Part shown: positions 4,394-58,962 of the stretch, piece after piece
Layout: each line of letters starts with the position of its first letter
How positions within the stretch are numbered: position 1 is the first letter of the stretch
NCBI GenBank assembly: GCA_029262455.1
Contig: JAJCZJ010000020.1
Location: 325,078-389,077 of the forward strand
Reading direction: 5' to 3'
Length of the DNA stretch: 64,000 nucleotides
Source: Deltaproteobacteria bacterium
GTDB lineage: Bacteria > Desulfobacterota > Binatia > HRBIN30 > CADEER01
The notes under the pieces: generated by a model
What the model was told of the DNA's origin: nothing
The model's input: the letters and a program-made list of their open reading frames with translations, nothing else
Database searches by the model: none
Translations under genes and position numbers: made by a program

Positions 4394-5590
4394 ATGACAA
4401 ATCTTGTTCAAGGACTCGTAAACGATCAGCGATCACGGATAGCCAAAATCGAACATGCCTCGGCGCCGAGGCATCGGACCAACCGGGCCAGCCGGTACGT
4501 CCTAGCCGCGTACGCCGCCCTCGCGATCGGCTTGGCTGGCACTTCCATCGCCTACGCCGAGTGCACAACTCGGATCGAAGGCAACAACTTCATCATTGAG
4601 GGGTGCAACGTTCACGTCCGGGATGGCAGCGGCGGTACCGACTGCGACACTTTGGCCGGCTGCAGCGGTCTCGGCAACATCGTACTCGGCTACAATGAAG
4701 ACACCGGGGACCCAAGCCCCAGAGGCGGCCAGCACAACTTGGTGGTCGGCCCTGACCACAGCTACACGAGCTCGGGAGGCTTGGTTGCCGGCCGGTCGAA
4801 CACTGTGAGTGGTGCAAACTCTTCGGTGTTTGGCGGCGGCGGGAATGTCGCTAGCGGCCTTGCTTCGTCGATCACTGGGGGAGGACTAAACATCGCAAAC
4901 GGCTGGGCCGTCACTGTCGGCGGCGGAATCAGGAATAAAGCCACCGGACCGTTCTCGACAGTTGCCGGCGGGTCCGACAATTGGACCCCCGGTCTCTTCA
5001 GCTCGGCCACGGGAGGCTTCGGAAACACAGCAGCCGGAGACCGGTCAGCAGTCACAGGCGGGTCCGAAAACACCGCGTCAGGATTCGCTTCAAGTGTCGT
5101 CGCTGGAATCGACAACGCAGCCACCGGAGCTGGTGCTTCGGTGGTCGGCGGTCGGACGAACATCGCTAGCGGCAACGGCAGCACGGTCTCGGGCGGCGAG
5201 AACAACACCGCGCAGGGCATCTCTTCCTCTGTGTCCGGTGGTGGCGACTCAGATCCAGCCAACGGGAACATAGCGTCTGGCGACTATGCGTCGGTATCCG
5301 GCGGAGGAAAGAACCAAGCAAGCGGCCCGTACGCTGCCGTCAGCGGCGGCGCAAACAACAATGCTAGCGCGGAACTGTCGAGCATCAACGGCGGCGCCGG
5401 CAACATCGCGAGCGGACAGTCCGCGACGGTCAGCGGTGGCGTTTCGAACGAGGCGTCGGGTTTGGAGTCGGTCATCAGCGGCGGCGTCCAGAATACGGCC
5501 GACGACATCGGTTCGACAGTAAGCGGCGGCGATCAACTGACGACGACGAGCCTCTTCGATCATCAGCCAGCTTGCAGCTGCGGGCCTTGA
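4394..5590 (+). CDS. Secreted or membrane-anchored protein made of 14-15-residue Gly/Ser/Asn repeats (YadA-head / Hep_Hag-like beta-roll), no autotransporter anchor
   Basis: ORF 4247..5590. Start moved to ATG 4394, preceded by GGAGAGGAG. N-terminal hydrophobic segment YVLAAYAALAIGLAGTSIAYA. About 20 repeats of the type S.VSGG..N.A.G.. Confidence 0.7.
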   Translation: MTNLVQGLVNDQRSRIAKIEHASAPRHRTNRASRYVLAAYAALAIGLAGTSIAYAECTTRIEGNNFIIEGCNVHVRDGSGGTDCDTLAGCSGLGNIVLGYNEDTGDPSPRGGQHNLVVGPDHSYTSSGGLVAGRSNTVSGANSSVFGGGGNVASGLASSITGGGLNIANGWAVTVGGGIRNKATGPFSTVAGGSDNWTPGLFSSATGGFGNTAAGDRSAVTGGSENTASGFASSVVAGIDNAATGAGASVVGGRTNIASGNGSTVSGGENNTAQGISSSVSGGGDSDPANGNIASGDYASVSGGGKNQASGPYAAVSGGANNNASAELSSINGGAGNIASGQSATVSGGVSNEASGLESVISGGVQNTADDIGSTVSGGDQLTTTSLFDHQPACSCGP

Positions 5591-5692
5591 TTCGGGCTCC
5601 GTCCACACTCCGAAGCACTGTCTTGCAGCCGTCGAGCCCATTCCGTGGCCAGCAAGTTCAGTACACATCGCGCACCTATCGGGAGGAAGACA

Positions 5693-7879
5693 ATGAAACA
5701 GCGAACAAAACACGTCCGCAAACCCGCGACCTCAAAATCGATGGTGATCATCGTATCGGTCGCACTCTCGTTGTCGCTACACGTCGCGACGGCCGACGCA
5801 GCTGTCTGTAACGCTGCGGATCTCTGCAGCCCAGGTCTGACCCTCTGCACGATCAACGGCACACACGAAATCGGCGACTTCTGCGAGCTCGATTTTCGCG
5901 GTCTGGCCGTTGCCAAGGTCGTACTGAACGGAACGCTGCAATCCGAAATCCCTGGTGGAGGTTTCGACATTCTCTCCAACGAGTTCACCCTGAACGGGAC
6001 GATCGCTGCATCTGGATCGATCGACGACACCGGCGGATCTATTTGGATCAACGCCGCGGGCGATTTCATACTCGCCAGCGGAAGGATCAATGTCTCCGGC
6101 CCGTCAGGCGCCGGAGACATTGACATCACCGCGACCGGGTCTGTCGACCTCCTGTCCGGCAGCGGCGCTGGGTTGCGCGCCGAGGGAACTACGCGAGAGG
6201 CTGACGGCGGAGCCGTCGCGATTGATGCCACGGGCCCCCTGCGCATTCATCGCAAGATCGCTACCTCCGGCGGCAACGACTCGAGCGGCGGCGACATCAA
6301 TCTCCGCGGCGCCACGATTGATATCGACGCTGAGCTCGATGTCCGCGCAAACTCCTCCGGATTGATCGAAGTGCTGGCAACTGGCGACCTGGAGATCGGC
6401 CCTAGCGGTCGCCTGCTGACGAAGGCCGTGCCCTTCGAGGACTCGGCGTCGTCCGCCGGAGATGTCGACCTCTTCTCTTTCGAAGGTAGCATCCTCATCG
6501 ACGGACAGATCGATGTCGACGGCGCCGCCGACACCGACGGCGCCGTCGTTTACCTCGACGCCGAGACCGACCTCACAGTGAACGGCGAGATTTTCGCAAG
6601 AGGAGGCAGCCTCTCAGCGAGTGGCGGTAGTATCGAAGCCTTCGCTAAGGGCGATCTGTCACTCTCCGGAAAGCTGTCGGTCGACGGCAACGGCGGCGAG
6701 AACGACGCCGGAGCCATCTCGATCGATGTCGACGGAGTTGCGCAAGTCACGGGTGAAGTGTCGGCAAACGGCGGTGCTCTATTCGGAAGCGGCGGATACA
6801 TCGACATCTTCGCAGACCAACTAAGCGTTCAGTCGCCAAGTAGTCTCCAAGTCAACGGTGGCGGCGGCGGCGGCTCTATCTTCGCAGAATCCCGCGCCGG
6901 CGACGCGATAGTCGGCGGTACTATGAAAGCAAACGGAACGGGAGGTAGCTTTGCCGGCGACATCGAGGTCCAAGCTCGCTGCCTGGTCGAAATCGGCGGA
7001 ACTGTAGAGGCCAAAGGAGAACCCGACGGTGCGATAACCCTCCAAGGCGAACAGATCTCAATTCTCTCCAACGCCAAGTTGATGGCAGCCTGCGGTCCCG
7101 CCGCTGACTGTATCCTCTTCCGAATCCGCCAAGTTTCTCCGACGAATCCAGACGTTCATCCACAGGCCATGGTCGATCCTCCTCCAACCGTCCAAGAGAT
7201 CCCCACGCTTCCAGCCTGTATCCCGCCAACACCGACACCAACCAGCACGCCGACAGCGACGCCCACCGCGACGCCGACCGCGACCGCAACCCCGACGGCG
7301 ACAGAATTACCCAGCGCAACCGCGACACCGACCCTAAGCACTCTGTGCGATACGGAGCCTAGGGACGATTGCGCCGAAGCGACGAGATCGTCCCTGTTGA
7401 TAAGGACGGACGCCGATCCAGAGCGCCAGAAGCTCATTTGGAAATGGTTGGGCGACGACCCCAACGGTTCTTTTTCGTTCGGCGCTCCCGACTCCATGAC
7501 GCGGTACCAATTCTGTGTGTACGAACAAATCGACCTCTTCGCGGCGCTTGAAATACCTCCCGCAACGACTTGCGGAACGAAACCGTGCTGGAAGCGCCTC
7601 GGGCCTACCTCCGAGCCACGGGGCTTTCGCTACAAAGATACCGATCTATCTTCAGACGGAATTCGCGTCCTACTCCTCAAAGCCAGCCAGGCAGGGACAA
7701 CGAAAGCAAAGGTCCTAGCAAAGGACGAAAACCTTCCATTCCCGTCTGCACTGGCGCTGGCACCTGAGGTCACGGTACAACTCGTCAACGATCTGGCCGC
7801 TAGTCCCTGCTGGTCGACGACGTATCAAGAAGAAGATGTGGTTCGGAACGACGACTCGCAGTTCAAAGCAAAACGTTGA
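5693..7879 (+). CDS. Secreted beta-helix-like repeat protein with a Pro-Thr linker and a Cys-containing C-terminal domain
   Basis: ORF 5645..7879. ATG 5693 follows GGGAGGAAG. Signal-like MKQRTKHVRKPATSKSMVIIVSVALSLSLHVATADA. Repeats GG.I.I.A.GDL.L.G.L.VDG. PT linker PTPTPTSTPTATPTATPTATATPTA at about nt 7223-7337. Confidence 0.75.
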   Translation: MKQRTKHVRKPATSKSMVIIVSVALSLSLHVATADAAVCNAADLCSPGLTLCTINGTHEIGDFCELDFRGLAVAKVVLNGTLQSEIPGGGFDILSNEFTLNGTIAASGSIDDTGGSIWINAAGDFILASGRINVSGPSGAGDIDITATGSVDLLSGSGAGLRAEGTTREADGGAVAIDATGPLRIHRKIATSGGNDSSGGDINLRGATIDIDAELDVRANSSGLIEVLATGDLEIGPSGRLLTKAVPFEDSASSAGDVDLFSFEGSILIDGQIDVDGAADTDGAVVYLDAETDLTVNGEIFARGGSLSASGGSIEAFAKGDLSLSGKLSVDGNGGENDAGAISIDVDGVAQVTGEVSANGGALFGSGGYIDIFADQLSVQSPSSLQVNGGGGGGSIFAESRAGDAIVGGTMKANGTGGSFAGDIEVQARCLVEIGGTVEAKGEPDGAITLQGEQISILSNAKLMAACGPAADCILFRIRQVSPTNPDVHPQAMVDPPPTVQEIPTLPACIPPTPTPTSTPTATPTATPTATATPTATELPSATATPTLSTLCDTEPRDDCAEATRSSLLIRTDADPERQKLIWKWLGDDPNGSFSFGAPDSMTRYQFCVYEQIDLFAALEIPPATTCGTKPCWKRLGPTSEPRGFRYKDTDLSSDGIRVLLLKASQAGTTKAKVLAKDENLPFPSALALAPEVTVQLVNDLAASPCWSTTYQEEDVVRNDDSQFKAKR

Positions 7880-9401
7880 TGCGCGCGGCGGAACCGCCAC
7901 TGGAGCACAGGCCATCTGCCTCCTGGTCGGTTCCGTCGTTGCCTATTCGACGACATTCGCACCCTGGAACGCTTCCGCACTGTCATGGATCGCCCTGACT
8001 CCCCTATTCTGGATCCTACAAAGCCAGACACCGGCCCAAGGCGCTCTCATTGGCCTGGCCTGGGGGACGGGCGCCATTTGGGGTGTCGGCTACTGGGTCC
8101 CTTCAGCCCTCGCGCATTACTACCAGCAGCCTCTGTGGTTCGGTTACCTGTTCGCCATCGGCGCGTCGCTTATCTTCGCGGGATCTTACACCGCTGGGTT
8201 CGCCGCCTGCGCGGCGTACGTCAGCTCGAAGCGATCGGGTTTGGCTAGAATCTTGACGGTCACTTGCCTGTGGGTCGCATGGGAACTAGCGCGAGCGCGT
8301 CTACTGACCGGCGACCCCTGGCTGCTCAGCGGATACGGCATCCTCACCTACAATCATCTGGCACAGACCGCAGACATCGGCGGTGTTTACATGCTTTCGT
8401 TCCTAATCGCACTGGTCAACGCAACCATGGCCGAGGTGATCGCGACCCGACCACTACAAAGAATTGTACCGCTTGCATTGATGACCGCCTGCATTCTGGT
8501 CGTCGCCAATGGTTACGGCTCTTTTCGGCTTCATCAACCTTTCCCATCTGAACCCGAGCTTGCCATCGCGGTCGTCCAGGGAAACAACGACGTCGGTTCC
8601 CAGTGGGAGTCCAAACATTACGGCCAAGGCTTGCGCACCTATCTTCAGCTCAGCACTGACGCTGCCGACAGCAAGCCCCGCTTGCTCGTATGGCCTGAAA
8701 ACGCGGTCACATTCTTTCTTGCGCACGAACCGACTTATCGATCGATAATCGGCAGAACCCTAAGTAGTCTCAACGCGGACCTGATCATCGGGACACCACA
8801 CTTCGAATCGGAAGATCCCGCACGACCGATCTATTTCAATTCAGCTTTCTACCTCTCAAAGAACGGCGAGATTCGCGACCGCTACGACAAAGTGCACCTG
8901 TTGCCCTTCGCAGAATATTTCCCACTCCACGCGATCGGGCTGTTGCGAAGAAACTTCGCGCGCGTCCGGTCGTTCGAAGAGGGGCGGGAGACCCGTCCCC
9001 TCGATACACAGTTCGGCCCAATCGCCACCTTGATCTGTTTCGAGGGCATCTTTCCTGAACTCGCACGCAGTCAGATGAACCAGGGAGCTTCCCTCCTTGT
9101 CAACCTATCAAACGACGCTTGGCTCGGCTCCACCATCGGTGCCGAACAGCACCTCTCGATGGTCGCTCTACGCGCCATCGAGAACCGTACATGGGTCATA
9201 CGCGCAACGACGACCGGCATCTCAGCGATCGTCGCCCCCGACGGACGCGTGGTGGCCCGAACAAACTCCCTCGAGAAAGCCTTGCTCCAGAAAACGGTAA
9301 TCCCGATGCAGATTTCGACTTTCTACAAACGGTGGGGCGATCTGTTCGCTTACGCGTGCTTGACATTCGCCGTCATCGGCACGGCAACTCGCCGCCACTG
9401 A
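7836..9401 (+). CDS. lnt: Apolipoprotein N-acyltransferase
   Basis: Multi-TM N-terminus plus CN-hydrolase motifs VVQGN, LLVWPENAV, FNSAFYL, YDKVHLLPFAEYFP, ICFEGIFPE, NLSNDAW. Start uncertain: 7836 overlaps the upstream stop by 44 nt. Confidence 0.85.
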   Translation: MWFGTTTRSSKQNVDARGGTATGAQAICLLVGSVVAYSTTFAPWNASALSWIALTPLFWILQSQTPAQGALIGLAWGTGAIWGVGYWVPSALAHYYQQPLWFGYLFAIGASLIFAGSYTAGFAACAAYVSSKRSGLARILTVTCLWVAWELARARLLTGDPWLLSGYGILTYNHLAQTADIGGVYMLSFLIALVNATMAEVIATRPLQRIVPLALMTACILVVANGYGSFRLHQPFPSEPELAIAVVQGNNDVGSQWESKHYGQGLRTYLQLSTDAADSKPRLLVWPENAVTFFLAHEPTYRSIIGRTLSSLNADLIIGTPHFESEDPARPIYFNSAFYLSKNGEIRDRYDKVHLLPFAEYFPLHAIGLLRRNFARVRSFEEGRETRPLDTQFGPIATLICFEGIFPELARSQMNQGASLLVNLSNDAWLGSTIGAEQHLSMVALRAIENRTWVIRATTTGISAIVAPDGRVVARTNSLEKALLQKTVIPMQISTFYKRWGDLFAYACLTFAVIGTATRRH

Positions 9402-30590: not shown

Positions 30591-30673
30591 TCGATGCAAA
30601 TCACTTGCCGTGTCACAAGTTTTCCCCTTTTAAGCTTGACAGGAAGTCAGCGAACGTCGAGACTGCCTCCCGG

Positions 30674-31942
30674 ATGCCGACATTTGTTGGCGACACCTTA
30701 CCGGAGGCGCTTCGAGCCTTGGACTGCTCAAAATCCATCGAAACTCGTGTCCTGCCGCGCGCAGTGGCCTTCGGTCGCTTGCTTCTCGCTATCGCGGCGG
30801 CACTTGCCGTGGTGACAGCTCCGCATAGGGCGCCGGCAGCCCAGATCAAGTTCACGGGATTTGCCCAAATCAACGGCGCCCCGAGCGGACCGTTCGCAGC
30901 ATTCACAATGAATGAGGTCGTCGATATGACGATCACGATCGACGAGACTACGGCCGATTCGAATGGCGCCGGCGGCGCCGGATCATACAGCGATCCGACC
31001 TCGACCGCATTGTTCGAGGGACAGACCTCCGTGCAGATGGTCACTTTCACCGGCTTCGGCTTCGAACTCCTCGATTCGACGCGACTCGACCCGGCCAACG
31101 GCCTCGTCTCATCGAGCCCGAGCGCGGCGTACGTCGAGGACTGGGACCTGACCAACCTGTCGCCGATTTCGAACGTCGACGACCTTCCGACCATCATTGC
31201 CGAGTTGCCCAATGTGAACATTGGAACCGTCAGCGCCAACTTTTCGATACAACAACTGCCCGCCGGCCCGACCACGCTCTTCCTCGGGCTCAAGCCAACC
31301 GTCACGGTCACCGACTTTTGCGGCAACGGCATCGTCGAGGCCCCGGAAGCGTGTGACGATCCGGTGTGTTGCAACCCGACCTGCACCGCAATCATAGCGA
31401 ACGGAACTGAATGCCGCGCTTCAGCCGGCGTCTGTGATGTGGCCGAGACCTGCAGCAACGGCGCATGCCCCGTCGACGGCTTCGCCTCGATCGGCACCGT
31501 GTGCAACCCGTCATTGGGCGTCTGTGATCCAGAGGAAGTGTGCAGCGGCTCGAGCGCGGAATGCCCGCCGGACACGCTGACTCAGTTCACCTGTGGCACG
31601 ATCTGCGGCGCCCCGGTAGACGAGTGCGACGTTGCCGACATCTGCGTCTCCGGCAACGTCGATTGCCCACCGATGGGGACAATGTGCACACCGACACCGG
31701 TTCCGACTCCGACGCCCACGCCCGTTCCCGAAAATGGGTCCGGGGACGGGGCTTGCAGCGACGGTCTCGACAACGACAACGACAACCTCATCGACTGCGA
31801 CGACCCTGATTGCCTCGACGTCGAGGCATGCGAAACCGTGCACGCACCGACGCTCTCGCCAGGTGGATTGACGATCACCGTGCTCATCCTCGCCCTCATC
31901 GGCTTGTTGGCGATGGGGCGGGCAGTGCTCCGGAAGAACTGA
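30674..31942 (+). CDS. Secreted Cys-rich protein with disintegrin-like motifs, a PT linker, a DxDxD motif and an IPTL-CTERM-like tail
   Basis: Inner part of ORF 30086..31942. Start is ATG 30674 or GTG 30764 (MAFGRLLLAIAAALAVVTA signal). CGNGIVEAPEACDD, three copies of C-x5-CD-x2-E-x-C-x(4,5)-CP-x-D, TPTPVPTPTPTPVP, DGLDNDNDNLIDCDDPDC, APTLSPGGLTITVLILALIGLLAMGRAVLRKN. Confidence 0.7.
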   Translation: MPTFVGDTLPEALRALDCSKSIETRVLPRAVAFGRLLLAIAAALAVVTAPHRAPAAQIKFTGFAQINGAPSGPFAAFTMNEVVDMTITIDETTADSNGAGGAGSYSDPTSTALFEGQTSVQMVTFTGFGFELLDSTRLDPANGLVSSSPSAAYVEDWDLTNLSPISNVDDLPTIIAELPNVNIGTVSANFSIQQLPAGPTTLFLGLKPTVTVTDFCGNGIVEAPEACDDPVCCNPTCTAIIANGTECRASAGVCDVAETCSNGACPVDGFASIGTVCNPSLGVCDPEEVCSGSSAECPPDTLTQFTCGTICGAPVDECDVADICVSGNVDCPPMGTMCTPTPVPTPTPTPVPENGSGDGACSDGLDNDNDNLIDCDDPDCLDVEACETVHAPTLSPGGLTITVLILALIGLLAMGRAVLRKN

Positions 31943-31962
31943 CGGCCGAGGTGCCTGATCAA

Positions 31963-32469
31963 ATGAGCGACTCCAAAAAGACAAGAAAGCAGCTAATCGA
32001 AGAACTCGAACAACTTCGTGGTCAAGTCGCGCAGCGACAGCAGTCGCAGTCGGACAACAGTGCACCGGCGCTTGCCGGCGACGTTTCACGACGCACCGCG
32101 CTAAAGGTCGCCTGGACCGCGCCGGTCATTTTGGCAATCCCTCTCCAGGCCGATCGCTCTGGCGCCCAACCTCCGGTCGGAACGGTGGCCCCGGGCTGTC
32201 CCACCATGACCCCGACCAACGCGGCCCCTCCGACTAGCTCGCCGACCTTGTTCCCAACGACCGCTGAGCCGACGATTTCGCCGACTCAACCAGTCCCGAC
32301 CACCAGGTTGCCAACGTCCAGTCCCACGAACGACCCGACATTGCGTCCGACCACCAGCCCGACGATCCCTGCCCCGACGGCTATGCCGACGGCGAGGCCG
32401 ACCACCAGCCCGACGATCCCTGCTCCGACGCTTTCCCCGACCCCTGGTTTCCCGACGCTTTCCCCGTAA
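31963..32469 (+). CDS. Pro/Thr-rich small protein with a conserved N-terminal helix and an SRRTALK Tat-like motif; candidate substrate/precursor 1
   Basis: Inner part of ORF 31810..32469, ATG 31963 lies 20 nt after the upstream stop. MSDSKKTRKQLIEELEQLRGQV...DVSRRTALKVAWTAPVILAIPL, then about 90 aa with about 26 Pro, mostly as P-T. Paralog of 45413..45892. Confidence 0.7.
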   Translation: MSDSKKTRKQLIEELEQLRGQVAQRQQSQSDNSAPALAGDVSRRTALKVAWTAPVILAIPLQADRSGAQPPVGTVAPGCPTMTPTNAAPPTSSPTLFPTTAEPTISPTQPVPTTRLPTSSPTNDPTLRPTTSPTIPAPTAMPTARPTTSPTIPAPTLSPTPGFPTLSP

Positions 32470-45412: not shown

Positions 45413-45892
45413 TTACTCCTCGCCCTTGGTTTCTTTTCCCACGGGAGCCGGTCGGCCCTCGTCGTCATCCGAAGCAATGAGCTTTTTAGCACCGAAGCCA
45501 AAGAGCGCCGCTGCGGCCACAGCCGCGGCGCCGCCTGAAACCACAGGCGCATCGACTGCTGCCTGAAAGGCGGTCGGAACCGCCGTACTGGGAAGGCCCG
45601 GATCGAGGACCGTCGGGACCTGCGTCGGTGCGGCAGTAGGATTGAGGCAAAGTGACGGCGAATTGGTACATTGCGTCGTCCCAGCTTCGACAGGCGCGAC
45701 GAATCCAAGATCAGACGAGACCGGTACCGATAAGATCACCGGCGTTACCCAGGCAATCTTGAGCGCCGAGCGCCTTGAAATATCGTCGGAAAAAGTCGGC
45801 CGCGCCGCCTTCCCGTCCGTCACCAGCTCGCCCCGCAGCCGCTCGATCTCCTCGAGAAGCTCCTTTTTCGTCTTCGTTCCGTCACCCGCCAT
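45413..45892 (-). CDS. Pro/Thr-rich small protein, paralog of 31963..32469, with a C-terminal hydrophobic anchor and acidic tail; candidate substrate/precursor 2
   Basis: ORF 45413..45997 trimmed to ATG 45892, which has a GGAGAGGG SD upstream. MAGDGTKTKKELLEEIERLRGEL...DISRRSALKIAWVTPVILSVPV, P/T/S/A-rich middle, GGAAAVAAAALFGFGAKKLIASDDDEG. Confidence 0.65.
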   Translation of the reverse strand: MAGDGTKTKKELLEEIERLRGELVTDGKAARPTFSDDISRRSALKIAWVTPVILSVPVSSDLGFVAPVEAGTTQCTNSPSLCLNPTAAPTQVPTVLDPGLPSTAVPTAFQAAVDAPVVSGGAAAVAAAALFGFGAKKLIASDDDEGRPAPVGKETKGEE

Positions 45893-56908: not shown

Positions 56909-57393
56909 GACAGTGACATCAGCAATTGTCGTACCGTCATTCCGCTGGTCCGTACGAACAGCGAACGAGAACAGGGATTCTCAAAATCACTGCTGGCAGC
57001 CGCTGGGTTTCTCACGTATGGGAAACCTGAATTCCAAATTCTCTGACCTGCGCGGTGGGTGGTACGACAAATCTAGTAGGGTCAGTGCGAGTCGTGCGCC
57101 GGCATCGAGGCAAAGGTATTTCGCCAAGTCGATCAAGCTTCTCTACGCCGCTTACTTCGGCGCGCTGAACACCTATTCAGCAGCAGCGCTCCAGTCGATC
57201 CAGAAGAAGGTGCCGATCTACGTACCCGACTTGGCGTTCGGCGTGCTAGGCGTCAGCCCTACCGAAGTAGCCCGACGCACTCGTCCGCGCAGGTGAACAA
57301 CCCGTCCGACGAATAACGTCGGCCGATGCCGCCCTCAGATCGTTGGTAACATTTTCTTGCTGCAATCCAGCAATCCTGGTCTACTTCGAACTG

Positions 57394-58962
57394 ATGAAAC
57401 AGACTCACCTCGTATTCCTCGCGCTGGGCCTCAGCACCCTATGCACGCACCCGATCGCGGCGCAGATCGAACCCATTGGCAACAGTATTCAAGTCGGTAC
57501 CAACGACGGCACCAACCAATTTCTGCCAACGGTCGCCGCGGCGCCGAACGGCAACTTTGTGGTTGCTTGGAGTCGTGCATTTGACTTCCCATTCATGGGG
57601 CAGATGATCCCGGTGCGCCAGCTACAAGCGCGCGCCTTCGACAGCGCCGGAGCGCCAGTGGGCTTCGAATTCAACATTCGTTCGGGGTACCAAACCGCGT
57701 TCATTCCAGACGCCACCGCGATCGATGGCGGATTCGTTGTGGCTTGGGAAAAACAGTTTGACTACGGCGTCCACGCGATAAAGCTCGACGCGTCGGGAAG
57801 CGCGCCCACCGGAGCGGAGTTTCTCGTCGACTCCACGGTTGTTTACAACAACCCGCCCGGCGAACCCGGCGACACCCTCAACCCGGAACAACCTGTCGTC
57901 GCTGCGACTGCCAACGGCGGTTTCGTCGTCGTGTGGTCCCGCGTCTACCTCGAGTGGCCCCCCACTGGAATCAGAGAGGGGCGTGGTGTGCACGGACGTC
58001 TCTATGACAGCAACGGCACGCCGGGTTCGAAGTTTCAGGTAAACACCACCCAACCAATGGAACACGCAGCCGCGGGACGCGACGTCGCCTCGGATCCCTC
58101 TGGAAACTTCGTTGCCGTCTGGGACTTTGAGAACGACGACGCAATCTTCGGGCAACGGTTTAACTCGAACGGGACACCGGTCGGCACCGAATTCTCAGTG
58201 AGCGGTCCGCCGGACACTCGCACCGACCCATCGACCTGCATGCACTCTGACTCCAGCTTCGTCGTCGAGTGGACGGCAACGGACGGCTCGGGGAACCCAC
58301 GCATTCAAGCCCAACGCTTCGACAGCGGTGGCACTTCCCAAGGCACAGATTTTCGAGTCAGCTTACCTTCGGCGACCTCAGCGCAGTACGGAGAGATTGT
58401 TTGCACCGGCGATGGCGGCTTCACCATTGCCTGGGACGAGCCCAGCGGCTTCTTCGGCCGTCGTTACGACGCCGCGGGCGATCCAGTCGGGACACGGGTA
58501 TCGTTACATGCGTCCGGACAGTCGCTTGACTCGCGTCCGCGCCTCGCGGCGCAGACGTTTCCCAATCTACTGATGGTGCATGACAGCAGCGCTATTACCG
58601 CTCAGCGAATGCGGGCGTCAGGAGAGGGATTCCCGGTCGACAGCTTCAAATGCTACAAGGCTATCGACCGAGAGGCGCCGCCGTTTCAGTCGCTGAGTGT
58701 AACGCTGGCGGACCAGTTCGCCATCAACGACGGCACTTTCAAGGTCGTCAAACCGCGCCTCCTCTGCAACCCCGTGGCAGTGGACAGCGAGGGGATTAAC
58801 CGACCTGACGAACACCAGGTTTGCTATAAGATCCGCGGACCAAGAATAGACCGCGACGAGAGACCCCTCATCTCCGTGAGCAGCGACTTCGGGGTTTCGC
58901 AGCTGGAGATCGTCAGACCATTGTACTTGTGCATACCTTCTCTCAAGACGGTACTTCCCTAG
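57394..58962 (+). CDS. Secreted beta-propeller-like repeat protein with a 4-Cys C-terminal domain
   Basis: ORF 57343..58962 trimmed to ATG 57394. Signal MKQTHLVFLALGLSTLCTHPIAAQ. Repeats G.EF.V......P.VA....G.FVV.W....QRF...G. Tail: FKCYKA...LLCNP...QVCYKI...LYLCIP. Confidence 0.7.
   Translation: MKQTHLVFLALGLSTLCTHPIAAQIEPIGNSIQVGTNDGTNQFLPTVAAAPNGNFVVAWSRAFDFPFMGQMIPVRQLQARAFDSAGAPVGFEFNIRSGYQTAFIPDATAIDGGFVVAWEKQFDYGVHAIKLDASGSAPTGAEFLVDSTVVYNNPPGEPGDTLNPEQPVVAATANGGFVVVWSRVYLEWPPTGIREGRGVHGRLYDSNGTPGSKFQVNTTQPMEHAAAGRDVASDPSGNFVAVWDFENDDAIFGQRFNSNGTPVGTEFSVSGPPDTRTDPSTCMHSDSSFVVEWTATDGSGNPRIQAQRFDSGGTSQGTDFRVSLPSATSAQYGEIVCTGDGGFTIAWDEPSGFFGRRYDAAGDPVGTRVSLHASGQSLDSRPRLAAQTFPNLLMVHDSSAITAQRMRASGEGFPVDSFKCYKAIDREAPPFQSLSVTLADQFAINDGTFKVVKPRLLCNPVAVDSEGINRPDEHQVCYKIRGPRIDRDERPLISVSSDFGVSQLEIVRPLYLCIPSLKTVLP

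Follow-up and report, generated by a model that had tools for sequence, protein, structure and literature searches.

The gene and its product

The open reading frame (ORF) at positions 30674–31942 on the forward strand of the 64-kb stretch of Deltaproteobacteria bacterium contig JAJCZJ010000020.1 analysed here (the window) runs from an ATG codon at 30674 to a stop codon at 31940–31942, and encodes a protein of 422 amino acids (aa). It is followed directly by a gene for a protein rich in proline and threonine (PT), here called substrate 1, a candidate substrate of the glycosylation island in this part of the window. The 422-aa protein is probably exported via the Sec pathway and anchored in the membrane by its C-terminus, with a head, a stalk, a linker and an anchor, and would function in the envelope as the surface partner of a mucin-like glycoprotein. 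The features of the two genes are as follows.

30674–31942 (+): whole ORF, from translation; the public protein P0001 starts at 30719
30749–30835 (+): putative Sec signal peptide, approximately residues 26–54, with a basic n-region, the h-region LLLAIAAALAVVTA and an APA/AQ cleavage site
30842–31315 (+): N-terminal head domain, residues 57–214, of an unannotated family and predicted to form a small beta-barrel with one helix
31319–31411 (+): disintegrin 'shoulder'-like head CGNGIVEAPEACDDPVCCNPTC, residues 216–246, 5 Cys, aligning to ADAM22 from residue 215
31412–31477 (+): disintegrin-loop unit 1 CRASAGVCDVAETCSNGACPVD, last loop shortened
31502–31573 (+): disintegrin-loop unit 2 CNPSLGVCDPEEVCSGSSAECPPD, with the exact Ca2+-site III consensus and the best Pfam stretch (269–300)
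31604–31672 (+): degenerate unit 3 CGAPVDECDVADICVSGNVDCPP, with the extra Cys307 and Cys338 on its flanks
31688–31729 (+): PT linker TPTPVPTPTPTPVP, residues 339–352, 14 aa
31745–31831 (+): single acidic double-disulfide repeat, residues 358–386, 4 Cys; NF033662, E=4.3e-7, 29.5 bits
31844–31858 (+): pre-membrane motif APTLS, residues 391–395; orthologue consensus [AV]P-x-[LMT]-S
31868–31939 (+): transmembrane (TM) helix LTITVLILALIGLLAMG and basic end RAVLRKN, from sequence, with a helix at 396–421 in the AlphaFold2 (AF2) model
31963–32469 (+): PT-rich substrate 1, the downstream partner, starting 20 nt after the stop codon of the upstream ORF, in conserved order

All strings quoted in an earlier note on this DNA, which was made from the letters alone (FCGNGIVEAPEACDD, CRASAGVCDVAETCSNGACPVD, CNPSLGVCDPEEVCSGSSAECPPD, CGAPVDECDVADICVSGNVDCPP, TPTPVPTPTPTPVP, DGLDNDNDNLIDCDDPDC and HAPTLSPGGLTITVLILALIGLLAMGRAVLRKN), were recovered by translation of the ORF, with the string DGLDNDNDNLIDCDDPDC located behind TPTPVPTPTPTPVP and before the tail HAPTLSPGGLTITVLILALIGLLAMGRAVLRKN, and the 20-nt gap agrees with its placing of the gene directly upstream of candidate substrate 1. 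Three start codons are possible (ATG 30674, TTG 30719 or GTG 30764), and the identical P0001 (407 aa) begins at the TTG. Orthologues with the same architecture were P0002, P0003, P0004, P0005, P0055, L004:1678-3042 and L005:5558-7975, with 42–52% identity in the five for which an alignment or score was obtained, and a scan of genome contigs detected only two orthologous loci, both in metagenome-assembled genomes (MAGs), one of them from Candidatus Binatia. Since seven orthologues have its architecture, the gene is real, and the antisense ORFs 30613–31575(-) and 31511–32089(-) were taken as shadow ORFs because it is the forward frame for which conserved orthologues exist. The orthologues all have an h-region and an AxA-type site ahead of the conserved domain in the alignment, and the AF2 model has a helix at residues 27–48, within the putative signal peptide; the predicted cleavage at APA/AQ was read from the sequence together with this alignment. 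A reading of the gene as a precursor of a ribosomally synthesised and post-translationally modified peptide (RiPP) was rejected, because of the signal peptide, the absence of a leader and the length of 400 aa.

The N-terminal head domain (residues 57–214) gave no match in Pfam or NCBIfam. A profile of the head was constructed from five orthologues and searched against 1.84 billion representatives, giving strong matches with the orthologues only, followed by 14 proteins of 200–240 aa (E=1.6e-8 to 3e-4). PEP-CTERM- or VPLPA-type tails were found at the end of all 13 of these small relatives that were read, and NCBIfam cut-offs (cyano_PEP, PEP_CTERM or VPLPA-CTERM) were passed by 5/6 of those tested. 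In a combined alignment, the head domain and the small relatives share the motifs GF..GE.V..F..DD.T.D, DP....L.G.TSG, DIDF and FS.VDDL, and the AF2 model of the head based on this alignment is a small beta-barrel with one helix, with a predicted local distance difference test score (pLDDT) of 87 and a predicted template modelling score (pTM) of 0.82. As the small relatives carry exosortase-type tails, the head may be described as an uncharacterised 'choice-of-anchor'-style domain. The small PEP-CTERM/VPLPA-CTERM proteins (~230 aa, from cyanobacteria and other sources, such as Dacsa_0988 of Dactylococcopsis salina) have the beta-barrel domain in common with the protein encoded here, but consist of this domain and a tail only, and lack both the disintegrin stalk and the PT linker.

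Disintegrin-type Cys units

Between the head domain and the PT linker, the ORF encodes three tandem copies of the Cys unit C-x6-C-D-x2-[ED]-x-C-x4/6-C-P, and a six-frame regular-expression scan of the 64 kb found this unit nowhere else, with all three matches in the forward frame of this ORF. The three copies proposed in the earlier note are thus present, but the spacing differs from that proposed, with six instead of five residues between the first two Cys, and four or six instead of four or five in the third loop. Unit 3 is degenerate, with D replacing E, and CPPM replacing CPxD. The orthologue alignment shows a 34-column gap at unit 1 relative to P0002, P0003 and P0005, and its shortened loop resembles a scar left by the deletion of one repeat. 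Exactly one 34-residue repeat appears to have been lost in this protein, P0004, P0055 and the L004 orthologue, so that a hybrid unit remains in which the loop is shortened to C-x4-C.

The proposal that these units correspond to the C-terminal half of metazoan disintegrin domains was supported by searches of different kinds. The Pfam Disintegrin profile PF00200 matched with 34.9 bits (E=2.8e-8) in three stretches, all in the C-terminal half of the profile, a score just under its gathering threshold of 35.1 bits, and the threshold was passed by six orthologues (69.3, 40.6, 56.9, 40.2, 63.0 and 40.6 bits) and by the wider bacterial family, which reached 127–210 bits with 7–12 stretches per protein. 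A phmmer search of the PDB matched the disintegrin domain of ADAM22 (E=7e-4) as well as P-III venom enzymes. We extracted 254 regular units from 54 retrieved homologues (consensus xxxGTxCRASAGVCDVAETCTGSSAACPADxF), and a repeat profile constructed from 50 of these units and searched against solved structures matched catrocollastatin (E=2.2e-12), bothropasin (also ~2e-12), AaHIV, ecarin, RVV-X, ADAM22 (E=1.6e-7) and VAP1; in the alignment with a 31-residue venom segment, 19/31 residues (~60%) were identical to the bacterial consensus.

The residues that bind Ca2+ in disintegrin domains are also conserved. The published consensus sequences are XCGN(X)3EXGEXCD for Ca2+ site II, and CD(X)2(E/D)XCXG(X)4C(X)2(D/N) for Ca2+ site III with the disintegrin loop (PMC4885070). 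The site II side chains N, E, E and D are all kept in FCGNGIVEAPEACD, with G to P as the sole change, and unit 2 (CDPEEVCSGSSAECPPD) is an exact match to site III; in unit 3, the G and the final D of the site III consensus are absent, and the loop of unit 1 is shortened. Judging from these sequence comparisons, we hold that the bacterial Cys units are truly homologous to the disintegrin loop of ADAMs and snake venom proteins, with the Ca2+ ligands intact, and are no look-alikes. The likeness to the disintegrin domains of ADAMs and snake venom metalloproteinases (SVMPs) comprises both the CGN(X)3E..E.CD head with the ligands of site II and the CR.....CD..E.C.G....CP.D unit with those of site III. 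However, the shoulder head is shortened to 5 Cys in the bacterial protein and the middle of the shoulder (Ds) and arm (Da) region is missing: the shoulder head and unit 1 together have 9 Cys, compared to ~15 in the full Ds and Da subdomains, and the PF00200 match covers only profile positions ~26–75 of 75. Furthermore, the bacterial protein has its loop unit in tandem repeats, lacks both the metalloproteinase and the Cys-rich/hypervariable domain, and combines the units with the beta-barrel head on one side and the TM tail on the other.

The disintegrin loop of ADAMs and P-III enzymes is buried and rigidifying, and does not serve as an integrin ligand (PMC4885070). Because of this, and since the protein lacks RGD and KGD, the module is read as a stalk locked by Ca2+ and disulfides, which may work as in ADAMs, as a rigid spacer and not as an integrin ligand, and would hold the beta-barrel head away from the membrane. 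Tandem arrays of as many as 12 repeats stand behind numerous unrelated N-terminal heads, including legume-type lectin domains (P0022), and we infer that bacteria use the disintegrin-type repeat as a tandem structural spacer. The homology to disintegrin domains could also be taken to indicate a functional disintegrin or adhesin, which binds a eukaryotic integrin-like receptor and acts as a host-interaction factor. We rejected this reading as extremely improbable, since the protein contains no RGD, KGD or similar tripeptide and its loops belong to the xCD (ADAM/P-III) type, described as buried and inaccessible for binding (PMC4885070), while the relatives derive from environmental Binatia and Myxococcales-type MAGs and use the unit as a spacer.

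Bacterial PF00200-positive repeat proteins are already present in the databases, and the protein described here is a further one, which has an unannotated head domain and an interesting genomic partnership. Our literature search on prokaryotic disintegrin domains returned nothing relevant. With ~60% of residues identical in the bacterial consensus and the venom segment, the question arises of a transfer of the unit between bacteria and animals, and of its direction, on which no paper was found in the literature searched.

Two further Cys-containing elements were compared with known families. The CGNG head had been likened to the myxobacterial Cys-rich repeat, and a resemblance does exist but is below threshold, as the isolated shoulder-head segment matched TIGR02232 (myxo_disulf_rpt) with 14.4 bits (E=0.024; cut-off 20.8), and the whole protein gave no TIGR02232 match. 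The cut-off was passed by the relatives P0013 (30.9 bits) and P0037 (40.4 bits). Proteins from Binatia and Myxococcales MAGs that are positive for TIGR02232, DUF4215 or PF00200 have the repeat in common with the protein described here, which differs from them in having two good units and one degenerate unit, a shoulder head that is sub-threshold for TIGR02232, a unique N-terminal domain and a fixed genomic partner. The acidic double-disulfide repeat behind the PT linker (residues 358–386) covers positions 4–32 of the 32-position NF033662 model, and its domain-level similarity to NF033662 proteins is significant, but the protein has one copy only, does not reach the whole-protein cut-off of 41 bits and is no multi-repeat member. 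An equivalent acidic repeat is present in P0005, and the remaining orthologues have a different 4-Cys mini-domain.

The C-terminal tail

The tail string HAPTLSPGGLTITVLILALIGLLAMGRAVLRKN spans 31841–31939 and has the TM helix and basic cluster (LTITVLILALIGLLAMG and RAVLRKN) at the extreme C-terminus. With APTLS ahead of the helix, the tail appears to be of a sorting-signal type, for which sortase-like cleavage and a plain TM anchor are both possible. The earlier note had likened the tail to IPTL-CTERM, and a true IPTL-CTERM protein would have its tail cleaved by a dedicated exosortase-type enzyme, with the mature protein then attached to the envelope. The exosortase-type enzyme XrtH is named 'IPTLxxWG-CTERM-specific'. 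The P-T-L-S motif, the TM helix and the basic end at the extreme C-terminus are shared with that family, and TIGR04174 (IPTL-CTERM) was the sole NCBIfam match of the isolated tail (15.6–16.2 bits, E ~0.01), with the tail of P0002 matching as well (16.6 bits). However, these scores are below the cut-off of 20.5 bits, and the whole protein had no TIGR04174 match at E<=10. Compared to the signature [IV]PTLxxWG, the sequence APTLSPGG keeps the P, T, L and final G, but has A in place of I/V and lacks the W. In control searches, the match was lost when PTLS was scrambled or replaced, a shuffled TM helix gave 11 bits, and grafting in the canonical IPTLSEWG raised the score to 27 bits. At the level of the motif, there is thus a real but incomplete resemblance.

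An IPTL-CTERM assignment would also fit with the distant relatives of the head domain, which all have exosortase-type tails, and with the IPTL-CTERM tail that was reported on an S-layer protein of Methylomirabilis (PMC8671808). On the other hand, PTLS is not kept in the orthologues, as their tails (VPLLSP, APAMSK, APATSP, VPAMSN and APATSW) matched, apart from that of P0002, MYXO-CTERM (21.5 bits for P0005 and 13.7 bits for another), LPXTG weakly, or nothing. There was no Pfam match to an exosortase, rhombosortase or CAAX-protease among the major ORFs of the 64-kb window, and tail scans detected no second protein with a strict tail in the window or in L001–L004. The APTLSP hexamer also recurs in the PT repeat IPAPTLSPTPG of the neighbouring substrate 1, and PTLS may therefore be a PT-type motif. 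Membership of IPTL-CTERM is not established by these comparisons and seems unlikely to us, and the label should not be carried over to this protein. Of the earlier description of a surface-sorted protein, export and C-terminal anchoring would follow naturally from the architecture, and the resemblance to IPTL-CTERM is below threshold.

A signal of the sorting type stays plausible in view of the choice-of-anchor pattern that the head domain shows, and is supported by the isolated tail matching sorting-domain models only. The choice of anchor within the family, with the tail described here, MYXO-like tails and a soluble domain, could help to define a new sorting signal of Binatia. The soluble domain is that of the L005/L006 orthologue (5558–7975), which has the usual head and stalk, then a PT linker with >130 aa, followed by a Cys-containing C-terminal domain of 290 aa that replaces the TM tail and gave no match in Pfam. 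A by-eye identification of this domain as DUF7450-like was dropped, given the absence of a Pfam match and the BLASTP result with the DUF7450 protein of the window (E=0.02).

In this latter protein (57271–58962, +), repeated units of the 'GGFVVAW' type precede a C-terminal region that matches DUF7450 (E=2e-5). Several disintegrin-repeat proteins end in DUF7450 (Pfam-confirmed in P0012) or in a similar ...C.PS.KT.LP sequence (P0012, P0016 and P0030), and P0038 ends in CVPSEIVP, which suggests that DUF7450-type endings may be an alternative C-terminal anchoring module. Substrate paralogues with their own TM helix (45413–45892 in the window, P0084 and P0099) have AP-x-[VL]-S ahead of the helix, followed by a long charged cytoplasmic extension.

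Substrate 1 and the glycosylation island

Substrate 1 consists of a conserved helix-like N-terminal leader (MSDSKKTKKQLIEELEQLR), the twin-arginine translocation (Tat)-like motif (S/T)RRTALKVAW, a single conserved Cys (GTVAPGCPTM) and PT repeats. The gene order of stalk-protein orthologue, substrate and PqqD enzyme was found in five loci and recurs in L001, L002/L003, L004 and L005/L006. The two genes lie within a glycosylation island of ~16.7–52 kb (16715–52000, both strands), which encodes three YfhO paralogues and glycosyltransferases (GT) or related proteins of several types (GT2, GT11, a Nucleotid_trans protein, an O-fucosyltransferase (O-FucT)-like protein and GT92), a protein of 883 aa and unknown function paired with an MBOAT protein, a pair conserved in L001 and L002 (in L005, the MBOAT gene is cut by the end of the locus), three enzymes fused to PqqD/RiPP recognition element (RRE) domains, a 2-oxoglutarate (2OG)-Fe(II) oxygenase resembling prolyl hydroxylases, two PF11397 (GT60-like) N-acetylglucosamine (GlcNAc) transferases, sulfotransferases and methyltransferases. 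For a ribosomal protein substrate, RRE-guided glycosylation of a eukaryote-like type looks unusual, and our literature search on Binatia glycosylation loci returned nothing relevant.

The conserved arrangement shows the 422-aa protein as a clade-specific accessory of a large protein-glycosylation locus in Binatia-type MAGs, and with its fixed pairing it is the most promising candidate for a partner of this unusual eukaryote-like system in the envelope. The protein and substrate 1 may be co-expressed and would act together at the cell surface, with the anchored protein as a tether, receptor or co-displayed partner of the substrate 1 glycoprotein, and the PT linker adding an extended and possibly glycosylated segment. 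The glycosylation system is a more remarkable feature of the window than the gene for the stalk protein itself, for which the main value of the analysis is in evaluating its annotation.

Alternatively, the protein could itself be the main glycosylation substrate through its PT linker and APTLSP, without a separate function as a partner. The PT linkers of the orthologues are long (25 to >130 aa), the APTLSP hexamer is common to the protein and substrate 1, and the YfhO paralogues of the island are membrane glycosyltransferases, encoded together with the GT2 enzyme. However, the linker in the protein described here is just 14 aa, and such linkers occur commonly among secreted proteins of unrelated kinds. 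The protein also lacks the conserved leader MSDSKKTKK..LEELE..RR and the Tat-like motif common to all true substrates. The PqqD-fused enzymes are cytoplasmic, and are therefore unlikely to act on a protein that is of the Sec type, disulfide-rich and without the leader, although periplasmic YfhO-type enzymes could act on its PT linker. Altogether we consider this alternative to be improbable, and prefer the reading of the protein as an anchored partner of substrate 1.

One form which such a partnership might take is a two-chain, disulfide-linked 'membrane mucin'. The Cys count of the disintegrin-like module is odd (19 or 23) in 7/7 orthologues, whereas counts are even in about half of the wider family, with many of those proteins apparently full-length and partial sequences adding noise. 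Substrate 1 has exactly one conserved Cys and, in these loci, lacks its own membrane anchor, and together with the odd Cys count of the stalk this makes an intermolecular disulfide tether possible. A free Cys in the stalk would then capture the exported, pre-glycosylated substrate chain in the periplasm, thus tethering it to the anchored protein, and the beta-barrel head might recognise the conserved ..ALFRFDD end of the substrate or its glycan. We regard this disulfide-linked arrangement as quite improbable.

Several observations weigh against an anchored surface partner with a rigid stalk. The protein itself falls 0.2 bits short of the PF00200 gathering threshold, and the full-length AF2 model (5-orthologue alignment) had a pLDDT of 41.6, and of ~30 over the Cys-rich part, and thus the structure prediction suggested in the earlier note provided no model of the stalk, with its presumed disulfide map and rigidity deriving from ADAM and SVMP structures. 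For the head domain, no function is annotated, and its fold matches are generic only. In the L005 orthologue, a soluble domain takes the place of the TM tail, and anchoring by the tail is therefore inessential to the family. Finally, no disintegrin-like gene is present in L007 and L008, two substrate loci that are more distant, and the protein is therefore dispensable for the glycosylation system.

Substrate 1 in the window stops at GFPTLSP, and does not have the ...FPAAAPAPEIRTALFRFDD end of its orthologues in L001, L002, L004 and L005, which is encoded by no downstream frame in the window. The L007 and L008 loci are distant versions of the locus with substrate, PqqD, O-FucT, oxygenase and GlcNAc transferase genes, and L008 is flanked by genes for an extracytoplasmic function (ECF) sigma factor and a vanadium-haloperoxidase-like protein. 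A second substrate paralogue is encoded in the window at 45413–45892 on the reverse strand (P0087), with a leader and Tat-like motif as in substrate 1 and a short PT region. Its C-terminus consists of APVVS, a TM helix and an acidic cytoplasmic tail, and this layout is also found in P0084 and P0099 from other loci.

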